A program made the translations under genes and the position numbers. Below the pieces are notes generated by a model, which did no database searches, had not been told where the DNA came from, and saw only the letters and a list, made by a program, of their open reading frames with translations. Positions 26,272 through 31,907 of a stretch of 64,000 nucleotides of DNA are shown piece by piece (position 1 is the stretch's first letter; the number at the start of each line of letters is the position of its first letter). The DNA is from Bacteroidota bacterium (GTDB lineage: Bacteria > Bacteroidota > JABWAT01). The DNA is taken from NCBI GenBank assembly GCA_023151185.1, contig JAKLJL010000001.1, forward strand, positions 359,306 to 423,305, written 5' to 3'.

Positions 26272-26404
26272 AGCTAATGGGTTACGTATTGGCGATGGTG
26301 GGGCATTTGAAAAACGTCTGACCCCCTCACTACAAAAGTCCAATAGAATTACAAATGTTGAGTTTACAACTGTCAGCCCCACTATTGCCAATACGATGTT
26401 AGCG
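26272..26404 (-). repeat. attC-like site 3, about 133 bp, with core mutated GTT>ATT
   Basis: On the minus strand CGCTAAC...ATTAGCT; arms CGTATTGGCGATGGTGGGG / CCCCACTATTGCCAATACG; near-copy of 28109-28242. Confidence 0.8.
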
Positions 26405-26468
26405 GCTCGTTGTTCTTCTCTTCATTTATTTTAGAGACCTATGCAGTATAGTTGTTTGTCTTATTATT

Positions 26469-26906
26469 TCAATTTGTCCTTGCCCATAGTACATTAATTA
26501 TTTTCCATTCATTTTCAATCTTTGATAAATGTAAATAGTCGATAAAATTCATTTTATTCTGTGTAACTTTTACAGTTGCGATATCATTTGAAATATCAAA
26601 TATAGTTATTGTGGCTTTGAATGGTTCATTTGATTGATCAGGTTTCCTTTTAAACATTTTTGTGTTATACAGCAATTCGCTAGCCCCCATATTTTTTATC
26701 ATAGAAAAGCCTAACGAGTCTTTTACAACGATTCTTTTTGCCAGCTCTGGATGTACAGCTTTTACTACTCTCTGGAAATTATTTGTATAAAAGCCCTCAA
26801 TGTAATTAAGTGAAGTCTCTTTAATCAAAAGAGAATCTTTAGCTGTTTGTCCAGCAGCAATATTACTTAAGAACAAAACACAAAGTGCATAAAGTATTTT
26901 TTTCAT
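26469..26906 (-). CDS. Exported NTF2-like (putative lumazine-binding) protein
   Basis: Signal peptide; NYIEGFY...HPELAKR...DYLHLSKIENEWKIINVLW. Confidence 0.8.
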   Translation of the reverse strand: MKKILYALCVLFLSNIAAGQTAKDSLLIKETSLNYIEGFYTNNFQRVVKAVHPELAKRIVVKDSLGFSMIKNMGASELLYNTKMFKRKPDQSNEPFKATITIFDISNDIATVKVTQNKMNFIDYLHLSKIENEWKIINVLWARTN

Positions 26907-26911
26907 ATTTA

Positions 26912-28084
26912 TTATTTTAAATAAAACGGGGTATAGTTTTCCCATTGCCATGGGGTGAATTTATCGCCAATGGCAATCTCTAAAAGCTCTTTAAATATAC
27001 TATCTCCATTATCGCTATTTGTCATTATAATAATTGCTATTTTTTTATCAGTAAAACAAATTGAGTAATGTTGCCATCCTTCATCGTTACCTTCTTTGAA
27101 AAAAGCTTTACCATATGGCGAACTCAATACTCCTATTCCGAAACCGTAACCAAGCTGAATTGGATCATTATCTGTACCATCAACCATTGAAAGCGGACCA
27201 AATTGTCGTATAGATTTAATTCTTACCTGCAAATTGGTCATTTCTTTAAACAAACTTTTCTTTAAACCTTTTCCTTTTATTAAAGCGGCATAAAATTTTG
27301 TAAAATCTGTTAGTGTGGTACTCATTGAACCCGCAGCATTTGGCTTGGTTCTTTTGTTTGGTTTGTATGGATCCCCTTTTGAATTATGACCAAAAGACAA
27401 TAGTGAATCAAACTGTTCTTTCCAAATCTGACTGCTCTGATTCATTTGAAGTGGCTTAAATACTCTTTCCTGTGAAATTGTTTCATAATCCTTGCCCAAT
27501 AGTTGCTCTATTACAAATTGCAACAGAAACAAGCCTTCGCCTGAATATCTGTATCGTGTTCCAGGCTCAAACAAAAATTTTAATTTATCATCTTCTTCAA
27601 ACCAGCGCCAATTAGGAAATCCAGTAGTATGAGTTAGACACATTCTTGCAGTAATTATTTCGTATCGATTATCATTTTCTAAATCCTGATAGCCTCTGTT
27701 CTTTTCTGTAAATTGATATTCAGTTAATGGCTTTTTGAGATAACTAACTAATGGCTTGTCCAAATCTATTACTTTTTCAGCTACCAATTGTAGAACAATA
27801 TACGTGAACACCATTTTGGAAAAAGAAGCTGCAACGAGGACTGAATTATCATTAAGTGGTTTTTTAGTTAAGGTATTTGAATAACCAAATGATTTGCTGT
27901 AAACAGGGTTATTATTATTAAAAATGGAAATTGCTATACCTGAAACATTAGCCTGCTTCATCAAGTAGTTTATTTTGTTATCTAAACTGTCAACAGAAAT
28001 TTTTGAACCATCTATTCTGTCAACTGATTGTCCAAAAGCTGTGAAAGAATAAATAACAATAAAAATAATGCAAATATTTTTCAT
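26912..28084 (-). CDS. Serine hydrolase of the beta-lactamase/AmpC-like family
   Basis: AASFSK (SxxK), LTHTTGFPNWR, YRYSGEG; signal peptide. Confidence 0.88.
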   Translation of the reverse strand: MKNICIIFIVIYSFTAFGQSVDRIDGSKISVDSLDNKINYLMKQANVSGIAISIFNNNNPVYSKSFGYSNTLTKKPLNDNSVLVAASFSKMVFTYIVLQLVAEKVIDLDKPLVSYLKKPLTEYQFTEKNRGYQDLENDNRYEIITARMCLTHTTGFPNWRWFEEDDKLKFLFEPGTRYRYSGEGLFLLQFVIEQLLGKDYETISQERVFKPLQMNQSSQIWKEQFDSLLSFGHNSKGDPYKPNKRTKPNAAGSMSTTLTDFTKFYAALIKGKGLKKSLFKEMTNLQVRIKSIRQFGPLSMVDGTDNDPIQLGYGFGIGVLSSPYGKAFFKEGNDEGWQHYSICFTDKKIAIIIMTNSDNGDSIFKELLEIAIGDKFTPWQWENYTPFYLK

Positions 28085-28108
28085 TTGTCTGTGGCGATTT
28101 ACAATGAC

Positions 28109-28242
28109 CGCTAACGGTTTACGTATTGGCGATGGTGGGGCATTTGAAAAACGTCAACTCAACATTTGCACAAATGCACAATAGAATTACAAATGTTGAG
28201 TTTACCACTGTCAGCCCCACTATTGCCAATACGATGTTAGCG
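28109..28242 (-). repeat. attC-like site 2, about 134 bp
   Basis: CGCTAAC...GTTAGCG termini with internal palindromic arms. The TAA stop of the upstream gene lies inside the inverse core. Confidence 0.85.
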
Positions 28243-29160
28243 GCTGGCACTCTTCGCTTTCTTTTGTGGTTTGTCAACAAGCCATTCTAAATGTCTGTGC
28301 ATTGCATTGAAAACTCTTTCAGGAACTGCAATTTGTTCATAATACTTCTTAATTTCTTCTGCATTCTCGTCTGGTTGTGTCATTAATTCTGCAAGTTCAT
28401 CAAAGAATTTCAAAGTCTTTTTGTTTGTCATAGAGTTGTTTGGTCTTGGCATTCCACTCCAAGCATCCCACTGTAAAAGTTCCTGCTTTTGCATAGAAGC
28501 AACGTCTTTTACAAGATTACCTGCGATAAACCAAAGCCCACGCATTTCAGGCTGAAATATTCCAAATTTTTGTGCGTCAAGTTTACCTTGCCTGCATAAA
28601 AGCCAACTTTCAGCAGGTCTAAAAAACTTGTCGTTTGGAACGTCAAATACATTATGTTTAATTCCTAAATTTTTAATCCAAACGTTGTCAAACTGTGGGT
28701 CAACTATAATCCAACGCTTTTCTTTTTCGTTCCAATATTCACAAACGGAATGGTCTTCATAAAACCCTGCATTAAAATAGTTGCCAAATCCATAGCGCAT
28801 TCTTGCAGGTATTTCCTTAGCCCGTAAAAAACCTGTCAAGAGTTTAGAAAAGTGATGGCAAACTCCAACTATTTTTTTGTCGGAAGGTCTTGGTTTTTCA
28901 AACACAGAATTGTCAAATTCTAAAATTTTGTCAAGTAACTTATCAAAGTGTCTTATGTGAGCTTCATTTTCAATTCGCACTTCGTCAAGTTCGATGTTAT
29001 AAAACTCTGTTGCAATAAACATATGAATTGAAAGTCCTTGAACAATTTCTGCTAATTTTATAATATCGTTTGGAAGTTGTTGGACTGCCTTTTTGTGCTG
29101 CCCACTTTCAGTAAATTGTCCTGCCGTAGCAAAAAATGTATGTAAAGGTTTTTCTGTCAT
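28237..29160 (-). CDS. Transglutaminase-like domain protein (cassette)
   Basis: Cys-His-Asp triad: GVCHHF, DHSVCEYW, VDPQ. Confidence 0.85.
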   Translation of the reverse strand: MTEKPLHTFFATAGQFTESGQHKKAVQQLPNDIIKLAEIVQGLSIHMFIATEFYNIELDEVRIENEAHIRHFDKLLDKILEFDNSVFEKPRPSDKKIVGVCHHFSKLLTGFLRAKEIPARMRYGFGNYFNAGFYEDHSVCEYWNEKEKRWIIVDPQFDNVWIKNLGIKHNVFDVPNDKFFRPAESWLLCRQGKLDAQKFGIFQPEMRGLWFIAGNLVKDVASMQKQELLQWDAWSGMPRPNNSMTNKKTLKFFDELAELMTQPDENAEEIKKYYEQIAVPERVFNAMHRHLEWLVDKPQKKAKSASR

Positions 29161-29203
29161 ATTTAATAACTCTCAGTTGTTGTATGCTGTCTCTTATGCT
29201 TGC

Positions 29204-29296
29204 CGCTAACGGGCCGGCGATAAAACAAGTTGCCGAAGGCAATTTGCCCGAAGGGCGTAGTGACCGAAGGGAACGAAGTTTTATTGCCTGTTGGGC
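29204..29296 (-). repeat. attC-like site 1, about 93 bp, different sequence family
   Basis: On the minus strand GCCCAAC...GTTAGCG; arms GGCGATAAAAC / GTTTTATTGCC; internal hairpins TTGCCGAAGGCAA and GCCCGAAGGGC. Confidence 0.82.
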
Positions 29297-29531
29297 GCTG
29301 TTAAATGGCGCGTAACCACAGCGTTTCTTTTCCCGGCCGATTCTCTTCTCTATTTGCATTGAGCGGCACTCATTAAGGGGAGTTGGTTGATTCTCTTTAT
29401 TTTCAATTACCCCAATCTATTCCATCAAAACCAAGAGACCTTATTTTTCGCCTTTAAGAACTTAGTATTCCCAAGTTATAGATCAGCATAATAAAACCGT
29501 AATCCATCTTGAAATGGTTGTCAATTACAAA

Positions 29532-30350
29532 TTAGCAATTTAACATCCCAAGCACTTTTAATGCGTCACTTAAAGCTCTTACATCATGCGTACGGATGTA
29601 ATCCACACCCATATAGCTTATATAAATTTCAGCAGCCAGGGTCGCTGGCGTTCGCTCGTTGACTCCTCGCCCAACAATAGTTCCTAAAAAAGATTTCCGA
29701 GAAACCGAAACAAGAATTGGTAATTTAAAGTATTCTTTTACTCGAAAAATATTTTTCAAAACATATATTGACGTTTCTGGGTTAGAGCCTAAGAAGAAAC
29801 CCATCCCTGGGTCTAAAATAATTCTTTCGGATGAAACGCCTGAATTTTGAAGTGAATTTATTCGTTGCGAAAAGAAATCAATTATTCCATTAAATATATT
29901 TTCGGGAACAGTTTCGATTACTTGGGCTTTCCCAAGCCGCTGTATGGAATGCATAACAATGAGTTTGCAATTAGATTCTGCCAATTCAGGATATAATTCT
30001 GCGTATGGAAACCCTTGAATGTCATTTAAATAGTGGACATTCTTTTTTAAAAAATATTTTTGAACTTCGGGTTTGAATGAATCAACAGAAACTGAAATAT
30101 TTTGAGAATGCAATTTGTCGATGACATCATTTAAACGGATTATTTCCTCATGAGGCTTTACTTCTTTTGATTCAGGATTACTGGAAGCGGCTCCTACATC
30201 AATTATGTCAGCGCCATCCTTAACAAGTAGAAGTGATTTCTCTATAGCTTTATCATAATTTAAATAAAGGCCGCCATCTGAAAAGCTGTCTTCAGTAATG
30301 TTTACTACACCTAGTATTGTAGGCTTTTTTAATTTCATATGTTTTTTCAC
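29532..30350 (-). CDS. Sul-type (Sul3-like) dihydropteroate synthase, putatively sulfonamide-insensitive
   Basis: NITEDSFSDGG, NDIQGFPY, MHSIQRLG, DPGMGFFLGSNPETS, SRKSFLG and RTHDV motifs; alternative ATG start at 30338. Confidence 0.9.
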   Translation of the reverse strand: MKKHMKLKKPTILGVVNITEDSFSDGGLYLNYDKAIEKSLLLVKDGADIIDVGAASSNPESKEVKPHEEIIRLNDVIDKLHSQNISVSVDSFKPEVQKYFLKKNVHYLNDIQGFPYAELYPELAESNCKLIVMHSIQRLGKAQVIETVPENIFNGIIDFFSQRINSLQNSGVSSERIILDPGMGFFLGSNPETSIYVLKNIFRVKEYFKLPILVSVSRKSFLGTIVGRGVNERTPATLAAEIYISYMGVDYIRTHDVRALSDALKVLGMLNC

Positions 30351-30502
30351 TTTAATTGCCTTTTCTATTCTGCTCTGTCTGTGGTTTTATTTCATATCTT
30401 TTTAATTTAATTCGCGGATTATTGTTTCCCTAAACTGTGCCGCTCGTCTTTTGTTTTTATATTTCTCGGCCGGGCTATTTATTTAACGCGCCATTTAATT
30501 GC

Positions 30503-30540
30503 GCCCAACTCGTTTATATAAGCCCCTTTTATATCCATAT
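30503..30540 (-). other. Putative attI-like recombination site at the head of the cassette array
   Basis: Minus strand reads GGGGCTTATATAAACGAG/TTGGGC. The core GTTGGGC is complementary to the first cassette's inverse core, with no attC-type palindrome upstream of it. Confidence 0.55.
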
Positions 30541-30741
30541 CCTGCTATATTAGGAGGATATGAGAGATTTTGTGCTCCTTATTTTGTACTAATATCTGGC
30601 CTTTTACCATTAAGCGCAATACAGGAAACCCCTTAATTTTCGGGGAAAAAGGACCTTAGTTTTAGGTTGTTTTATACCTTAGAAGACCTAAGGTGCCAGC
30701 CCGGCAGGCACACTCGGCGTCGGTTCACTGAACAATCCCTA

Positions 30742-31032
30742 TTCAACAGTCATCGTCGTATCAAATTGATAAGCTGGCCTCTGTTTATCAGTCATCGTCG
30801 TATCAAATTGATAAGCTGGCCTGAGTTCAACAGTCATCATCGTATCAAAATGATAAGCTAGCCTCTGCTTATCAGTCATTGTCCTATCAAAATGATAAGC
30901 TGGCCTCTGTTTGTCAGTCATCATCGAATCAAATTGATAAACTGGCCTCTGTTGAACAGTCATTGTCGTATCAAATTGATAAACTGGCCTGAGTTAAACA
31001 GCGATCACCGTATCAAATTGATAAGCCAGCCT
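30742..31032. repeat. Tandem repeat, 7 x 42 bp, consensus CAGTCATCGTCGTATCAAATTGATAAGCTGGCCTCTGTTnAn
   Basis: The TATCAAA(T/A)TGATA core starts at 30759, 30801, 30843, 30885, 30927, 30969 and 31011, an exact 42-bp period. Confidence 0.93.
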
Positions 31033-31118
31033 TTGGTGGTTTACTGTCACCGGTCAGGTGGGGCTGCAGCCCCAACCGGAATCTGACGGGTTAGACCGGT
31101 ACCTGGTGTGAGGCGGGT

Positions 31119-31280
31119 TTAAAAACCGGCGATGATAATTTGTTTCATAACCATCAGTTTCTTGTATGCACCGGGTTTTTGGTTGAGTTCCTCCCAGTTT
31201 TCAGGGCAGACTTGCTAGCTTAATCCGTACTTGTCTATTAACCAGCCACTGACACTTTCCTGAACGCCGTTTGCAGTGAT
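31119..31280 (-). pseudogene. Decayed duplicate of the 3' end of the neighbouring VOC gene
   Basis: Translates as TANGVQESVSGWLIDKYGLS*QVCPENWEELNQKPGAYKKLM versus TANGGQESVCGWLKDQFGLSWQICPENWEELNQRPGAFRKLM; in-frame stop plus a frameshift. Confidence 0.85.
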
Positions 31281-31445
31281 AGTATTTAAATTTTAATATG
31301 ATACGAAGTGATTCGTTTTTATTCGATAAATATCCGAAAGATTTGATACGATATGAGCTTATATGATACGATAGCAGTTCGGTAAAATGCCCTGTAACTC
31401 TCTTACTTAAGCCACTATTACACCCCTATCCTGGAAGATAGGGGC

Positions 31446-31907
31446 TTAAAAATCGGCGATCCTGATTTTCTTCATTCCCATCAGTTTCCGGAAGGCACCG
31501 GGTCTTTGGTTGAGTTCTTCCCAGTTTTCAGGGCAGATCTGCCAGCTTAATCCGAATTGATCTTTTAACCAGCCGCAGACACTTTCCTGACCGCCATTGG
31601 CGGTGAGGGCCGTCCAGTAACAATCAATTTCTGCCTGGTCTTTACAGGGTATCATGAACGAAACGGCTTCTGTAAATTTGAACTGGGGTCCGGCATTGAT
31701 GCCGATAAACCGCATCCCCAGAATCTCAAATTCAACGGTGAGTACTTTTCCTGCAAAGTCTTTCTGAAAAGGGGCAAGTCCGTCTGCTTCAGTTGCCGGG
31801 TAGTAGGTGATGCCGGTTACTTTTCCGTCTTTGAAAACCGAGAGATAAAAGTCGGCGGCTTCTTTGGCGTTGCCGTCGAACCACAGGTTGGGAATGATCT
31901 TGTGCAT
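31446..31907 (-). CDS. VOC family protein (PhnB/3-demethylubiquinone-9 methyltransferase-like)
   Basis: IIPNLWFD, NAGPQFKFTEAVSF and CGWLKDQFGLSWQI motifs. Confidence 0.9.
   Translation of the reverse strand: MHKIIPNLWFDGNAKEAADFYLSVFKDGKVTGITYYPATEADGLAPFQKDFAGKVLTVEFEILGMRFIGINAGPQFKFTEAVSFMIPCKDQAEIDCYWTALTANGGQESVCGWLKDQFGLSWQICPENWEELNQRPGAFRKLMGMKKIRIADF

Follow-up and report, generated by a model that had tools for sequence, protein, structure and literature searches.

The sulfonamide resistance gene sul3 owes its association with class 1 integrons to IS elements and does not itself form an attC cassette. According to the available text of PMC10328974, discrimination against sulfonamides is decided by Phe177 in Sul3 and Phe178 in Sul1. 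These residues and Phe179 of Sul2 clash with the drugs, their replacement by Gly cuts the Ki for sulfamethoxazole 90- to 243-fold, and the E. coli DHPS is turned resistant by insertion of Phe-Gly; the same text describes the Gly-Phe-Phe motif as a hallmark of Sul-like enzymes. The sul4 gene was found as a mobile sul gene in integron-rich environmental DNA (Razavi et al., 2017; PMC5732528), and a 2025 article (PMC12772301) lists sul1-4 and treats sul4 as the newest type. In the available portions of these two articles, movement of sul4 is ascribed to ISCR elements rather than to a cassette. Divergent enzymes of environmental origin have also been studied, and three DHPSs from forest soil, only 46-58% identical to the nearest DHPS entries in databases, increase the sulfonamide MICs of E. 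coli, as set out in the accessible part of PMC6416219. Here we describe a gene from a Bacteroidota genome that is, in our judgment, probably a second, acquired Sul-type DHPS with predicted drug insensitivity, travelling on an integron-type cassette. The gene is not described in the papers up to 2025 that were searched, a search outside which subscription journals and supplements lay.

The gene lies on the minus strand of the 64-kb stretch of DNA that was analysed (the window; Table 1). Reading from the ATG at 30338, the start used by public gene callers and the likelier one, gives 268 residues; numbering below follows the longer 272-residue form. The product matches Pfam PF00809 (Pterin_bind) with 203.6 bits, which identifies it as a DHPS, and it exceeds the cut-off of the generic DHPS model TIGR01496 (257.6 bits against 162.6). 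Among NCBIfam models Sul3 ranks first (351.9 bits), followed by Sul2 (272.2), Sul1 (262.0), and TIGR01496, with Sul4 at 103.3, and the query falls below the curated cut-off of every named Sul model. For Sul3 (NF000296) that cut-off is 475, and the protein is thus no named Sul3 allele. The closest solved structures are those of Sul3 (7s2m, 7s2l, and 8scd; E values of 4e-98 to 5e-97), with which the query aligns without gaps over 257 residues; Sul2 (6e-74), Sul1 (1e-73), and ordinary DHPSs (1e-42 and weaker) follow. Global identity is 59% to Sul3 (60% by BLAST), 50% to Sul2, 48% to Sul1, and 32% to the FolP of the host. Because the named Sul types share 43-53% identity with one another, a protein that is 48-60% identical to Sul1-3 is about as distinct as a separate Sul type.

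The conserved DHPS motifs (VNITEDSFSDGG, SVDSF, NDIQG, DPG, SRKSF, and RTHD) are all intact. A FastTree phylogeny of 222 sequences, with fragments and proteins outside 240-330 aa excluded, places the query within a large insertion-carrying clade, where its group is sister to the one containing Sul3; its nearest named relatives are from Sporomusa and Propionispora (72-74% identity). A sequence-only reading of this DNA had reported a DHPS with DPGMGFFLGSNPETS, NDIQGFPY, and MHSIQRLG that follows Sul3 closely yet is clearly not identical to it. The translation holds all three motifs, and the identity of 59-60% and the sub-threshold Sul3 score agree with the second part of that statement. The gene adds a new member to the Sul family and is likely an unnamed mobile sulfonamide-resistance gene.

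The segment that matters most for drug discrimination is conserved. The motif DPGMGFFLG occupies residues 180-188, and the 15 residues of the alpha-6 segment (DPGMGFFLGSNPETS) are identical in the query and Sul3. In the aligned loop DPGMGFFL, followed by G or S, is common to the query and Sul1-3, and the FolP of the host reads DPGFGF--GKT, so that the two-residue insertion claimed in the sequence-only reading is real when measured against the host's own enzyme. As the alignment is gapless, Phe185 of the query corresponds to Phe177 of Sul3. Resistance to sulfonamides is strongly suggested by this motif together with the second-copy status of the gene, its neighbours, and its habitat, which are treated below. 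DPGMGFFLG is present in 132 of the 269 hits fetched, however, and with so many proteins of this kind it is conceivable that a functional mobile Sul-type DHPS gives no useful resistance and has spread as a folate back-up or as protection against natural pABA analogues. We regard this as unlikely, given that the query and Sul3 agree throughout the alpha-6 segment and that environmental DHPSs with 46-58% identity to the nearest database entries conferred resistance on E. coli (PMC6416219, accessible part). The near-identity of the gene (99-100%) across orders, in antibiotic-exposed habitats and beside tet(X), erm(F), and aadS, also speaks against it, and we retain predicted drug insensitivity as the preferred reading.

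The host genome (27 contigs, 3.74 Mb) yields three Pterin_bind matches. One is a 1229-aa frame that we take to be MetH from its length and domain. Another is a housekeeping folP (C27:42310-43026), whose 280-aa product has the ordinary DPGFGFGKT loop, and the query is therefore an extra copy beside it. Beyond its identity as a DHPS, nothing speaks for the query being the organism's own vertically inherited folP, the outcome that the sequence-only reading had named as fatal to its proposal. That explanation is refuted by the separate FolP, only 32% identical to the query, by base composition, and by a patchy distribution, and we give it practically no credence. The cassette has 37.0% GC, as against 48% for the host. 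More broadly, GC is 33-38% between 26 and 31 kb compared with about 48% elsewhere in the window, in keeping with the AT-richness that had been claimed. The 1.3-kb cassette was found in none of the 30 relatives searched, which included two of the same genus and two more of the same family (the one listed match was 30 nt long and at chance level), yet it is 99-100% identical in members of other orders.

Comparison with other genomes defined the ends of the mobile unit. Inside its borders the cassette has a 5' leader of about 170 nt and a spacer of about 235 nt between stop codon and attC. In a scan of one genome per species, a 99-100% identical protein was encoded in 11 genomes, namely those of two Flavobacteriales MAGs, a Chitinophagales MAG, a Cyclobacteriaceae MAG, 'Chlorobi bacterium OLB5', an Ignavibacteria MAG, the cultured Paenimyroides aquimaris CGMCC 1.10825, and four further MAGs. 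The only DNA that these genomes have in common with the window runs from 30509 to about 29205, at 99.1-99.9% nucleotide identity. A metagenome scan, for which a 78%-identical relative served as query, returned 60 loci, 31 of them carrying the sul cassette at 99.1-100% identity. Outside the window this makes 42 loci, 11 from species genomes and 31 from metagenome contigs, with a left flank that could be read in 39 and a right flank in 32. There are 28 distinct left flanks, every one joined at |GTTGGGC, and 25 distinct right flanks, every one following ...CCCG|TT. This diversity of flanks, always at G|TT, identifies a true and highly mobile cassette that has spread widely and recently. It also confirms the sequence-only reading on two counts, the designation as a true cassette and the borders formed by recombination sites. 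One locus (L008) keeps the left end unchanged but has lost about 90 nt from within the leader, between two AATTAAAT repeats. Contigs from four further public runs, belonging to four studies, match 29203/29207-30509 only and continue into diverging sequence.

The metagenome scan also returned three groups of relatives with coding regions that match the window gene at 74-78% nucleotide identity (A, B, and C, with 8, 7, and 8 loci; L031-L053), each about 100% identical internally. They were considered as a source or as versions of the same cassette and rejected, since only the coding region matches and G|TT borders are absent. Each group occurs with two alternative flanks, which suggests that its members are mobile by another route.

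Table 1. Positions of the sul cassette, its recombination site, and adjoining features in the window
Feature	Position	Strand	Description
Third, last cassette	26272..28114	minus	serine hydrolase 26912-28084 (beta-lactamase fold) and Lumazine_bd_2 26469-26951
Third cassette attC	~26404-26272	minus	degenerate R' (ATTAGCT)
Second cassette	28115..29209	minus	transglutaminase-core-like ORF 28237-29160; 134-nt attC 28242-28109
Mobile (sul) cassette	29210..30508	minus	1,299 bp, 37.0% GC; from TT of G|TTGGGC to G of next G|TTA
Putative attC of sul cassette	29204..29296	minus	93 nt
R'	29210-29204	minus	G|TTAGCG
Inner 11-bp stem	29288-29278 / 29226-29216	minus	GGCAATAAAAC / GTTTTATCGCC
R''	29296-29290	minus	GCCCAAC; complementary to the cassette's own start, G+TTGGGC
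Partner arm of 24-nt inverted repeat	29290..29313	minus	includes R''
Sul3-like DHPS gene	29532..30350	minus	272 aa from GTG at 30350
24-nt arm, cassette 5' end	30486..30509	minus	92% complementary to 29290-29313
attI-like core	30507..30520	minus	TATATAAACGAGTT; sul cassette directly after
Repeat element	30507..31077	minus	42-nt tandem repeats 30705-31077, then ~200 nt conserved, ending in TATATAAACGAGTT

An attC is an imperfect palindrome whose R'' (RYYYAAC) and R' (GTTRRRY) boxes are complementary. In the putative attC of the sul cassette, R'' pairs with the cassette's own start and an inner stem is present. Its predicted single-strand fold is weak (z = -1.58; 13 of 200 shuffles folded equally well or better), and a local-alignment scan for attC sites scored it below threshold. 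The attC sites of the neighbouring cassettes in these arrays are longer and form a uniform family of 129-134 nt, which it does not resemble; two members of that family are in the window, one spanning 28242-28109 with z = -7.7 and another at about 26404-26272 with z = -3.65. The complementarity between the two ends of the cassette (24 nt, 92%) exceeds a normal R box, and a circular form of the cassette would therefore hold its R box in a stem of about 24 bp. A hairpin scan also found a palindromic repeat of 150-157 nt (ATCTAACCACGAAAGG...CGTGGTTAACT) at C2:108532-109969, where its four copies are spaced 230-820 nt apart.

Read along the minus strand, the local order is repeat element, sul cassette, transglutaminase-core-like cassette, two-gene cassette, and then host-like genes of normal GC. 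The serine hydrolase of the two-gene cassette (390 aa) scores 140.5 bits on Pfam Beta-lactamase and 54.6 on the class C model. As the latter is far under its cut-off of 415, an esterase or a hydrolase resembling penicillin-binding proteins is likelier than a known beta-lactamase. The sequence-only reading had assigned the sul gene to the first cassette position. This holds insofar as the cassette directly follows an attI-like core; the core belongs to an orphan repeat element, and no tyrosine recombinase gene occurs anywhere in the window, the four in the genome all lying elsewhere. The sequence TATATAA[AG]NGAGTT, which describes the core, occurs six times in the genome, compared with 0.32 expected, and similarity among the six copies breaks off at G|TT, the very point at which the sul cassette begins. 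One copy follows a recombinase gene on contig C1 and five stand at the ends of repeat elements (C11, two on C21, C25, and C4). Three attC sites lie 8-12 kb downstream of the copy at C21:97485. The other three orphan copies are followed by larger genes, and the scan found no attC there.

The repeat element is present in five copies (window 30507-31077; C21:285313-285707; C21:97157-97485; C25:162281-162468; C4:61271-61561), each with 2 to about 8 tandem 42-nt units, and every unit holds the palindrome TATCAAtTTGATA. The part of about 200 nt that follows contains several hairpins, one of which keeps its pairing despite sequence differences between copies. Rfam gave no match in the whole window at gathering thresholds, and between 29100 and 31500, with E values up to 1, a single chance snoRNA-like match; the upstream element is thus not a known RNA family. 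Between the tandem repeats and a 3-dmu-9_3-mt/VOC-family gene (31446-31907) lies a 165-nt copy (31115-31279), 82% identical to 31442-31606, of the 3' end of that gene. It may be left over from a second gene that was interrupted when the repeat element inserted.

A genome in 27 contigs, with a five-copy repeat element on one side of the array, offers an opportunity for mis-joining, and the array could in principle have been misplaced in this genome by assembly or binning. We consider this improbable. The window lies within a 992-kb contig, further copies of the 134-nt attC (on C1) and of the flanking repeat element (on C21, C25, and C4) are confined to the same genome, and a search of 30 relatives did not find the repeat element. 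A mis-join at the repeat would, moreover, still leave the array in the genome, and we therefore keep to the reading in which the acquired cassette is resident there. Expression of the gene is presumed, and the best-expressed position proposed in the sequence-only reading finds no support. No promoter can be named, because a sigma-70-type and terminator scan of 29100-31200 gave 7 promoter-like sites compared with 5.5 +/- 2.3 in shuffled sequence and the Bacteroidota -7 motif (TAnnTTTG or TAnnTTT) is absent from 31100-30339, the 762 nt upstream of the ATG.

Two of the genome's recombinases are relevant to cassette movement. The one on C5 (C5:61105-62130; L016:11106-12131, minus) is a canonical IntI, with 429.8 bits on TIGR02249 (cut-off 265) and the additional domain present. 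Its gene lies 456 nt from the contig end, and any cassette array that it may have is not assembled beside it. As the 456 nt beyond intI do not contain the repeat element, the C5 integron could not be linked to the window array. The recombinase on C1 (C1:47384-48445; L015:3385-4446) is Xer-like (NF040815, 247.6 bits against 220; TIGR02249, 221 against 265); it has an N-terminal extension and no IntI insertion. About 100 nt downstream of its gene stands TATATAAACGAGTT, followed by an array with four 131-134-nt attC sites. Within this genome, the C1 locus has the appearance of a complete cassette platform of a non-canonical kind. Genes in its array, which extends to C1:58987, include a type I restriction-modification hsdM-like gene, an MFS gene, and others.

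The same type of enzyme accompanies the sul cassette elsewhere. A tyrosine recombinase was within the fetched flank in 10 of the 42 loci, and all ten are of the short type, with a KGxKDR-LRHS spacing of 66-69 aa compared with 108 aa in the genome's canonical IntI; the IntI-specific additional domain is absent from every one. Seven are oriented with the sul cassette and three diverge from it, and the cassette directly adjoins the recombinase gene in L006, L011/L056, L059, L061, and L066. As none of the ten is a canonical IntI, the unit is an integron cassette by its behaviour and not by the defining enzyme. The available text of PMC11194056 places tetX, catB, and aadS of Chryseobacterium beside 'XerD' recombinases and does not call them cassettes.

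The array in the Paenimyroides aquimaris isolate (L012) runs in the order recombinase, Tet(X) (871.4 bits; cut-off 750), AadS (517.9; 450), an AAC(3)-I-like protein (below cut-off), Erm(F) (587.7; 575), encoded on the opposite strand, the sul cassette, and ArsR. Within L012:359-5841, an attC-like hairpin of 129-132 nt with GTT at its end comes after each of tet(X), aadS, and the AAC(3)-I-like gene, and the three thus behave as cassettes of the Xer-like platform. Other loci encode a Lnu(D)-like protein (305 bits; cut-off 325) and tetracycline-efflux-like MFS and SMR/Qac-like proteins, all below their cut-offs. The whole cassette is contained in 21 listed runs of 19 studies, and 15 of the 21 runs are flagged as possible sources of the window DNA itself; the runs are labelled activated sludge, anaerobic digester, biogas fermenter, bioreactor sludge, wastewater, sludge, or 'metagenome'. 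Six of them are RNA libraries, in which presence is no proof of transcription. A search of PLSDB did not find the gene on any plasmid, and the top match among the best 5,000 records is sul3 (60.4%). Drug selection fits a cassette that is 99-100% identical across orders, comes from antibiotic-exposed habitats, and has tet(X), erm(F), and aadS beside it.

These observations suggest the following scheme. The Sul-type enzyme would run the normal reaction of pABA and DHPP, as Sul1-3 do, and the extra alpha-6 residues (Met-Gly-Phe-Phe-Leu, including Phe185) would sterically keep sulfonamides out, so that the acquired DHPS could bypass the drug-sensitive FolP of its host. The 1.3-kb cassette, a single ORF with its own putative attC hairpin, is cut and joined at G|TT and enters the cassette arrays of sludge and wastewater Bacteroidota and Ignavibacteria-type bacteria at their attI-like or attC sites. 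In the window, the sul cassette is the first of three docked at an orphan chromosomal attI-like site, presumably inserted in trans by the Xer-like recombinase of C1, which lacks the IntI insertion. More tentatively, and with somewhat less than even confidence, we suggest that this may be the first sul gene carried as a genuine cassette and moved by an Xer-like system that standard integron tools miss, with one recombinase serving six docking sites. One recombinase gene and six sites would imply that cassettes and larger islands are captured in trans at several chromosomal places. If that is true, a pool of cassettes in wastewater Bacteroidota (tet(X), erm(F), aadS, and sul) would be moved by an undescribed multi-site capture platform.

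Only four types of mobile sulfonamide-resistance gene have been named, and the curated Sul models miss the present one. It has already reached, with hardly any change, at least 25-28 genetic contexts, and the bacteria of sludge and wastewater that carry it belong to several orders. Should resistance be confirmed, the gene would merit a name and an entry in surveillance databases, and sul genes would have to be regarded as able to travel as cassettes.

Set against the described systems, the query most resembles the plasmid-borne Sul3, with which it shares fold, length, a gapless alignment of 257 residues, an identical DPGMGFFLGSNPETS segment with the key Phe, and low GC; it differs in being only 59-60% identical and below the model cut-off, and in being, unlike sul3, a cassette. 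With Sul1 and Sul2 it has the DPGMGFFL motif and the presumed mechanism of drug exclusion in common, although identity is only 48% and 50%, respectively. Sul4 is more remote, its model giving only 103 bits on the query. The Sul-like DHPSs from soil are similarly divergent, and for them resistance has been measured in E. coli; in the accessible part of that article (PMC6416219) the authors call them non-mobile, whereas the gene described here is highly mobile and near-identical across taxa. The cassettes of class 1 integrons, such as dfrA and aadA, offer the closest parallel in organisation: one ORF with its own attC (putative in the sul cassette), crossover at G|TT, varied neighbours, and an attI-like site. 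The recombinases associated with the sul cassette set it apart from these, for they are without the additional domain of IntI, are extended at the N terminus, and mostly point in the same direction as the cassettes.
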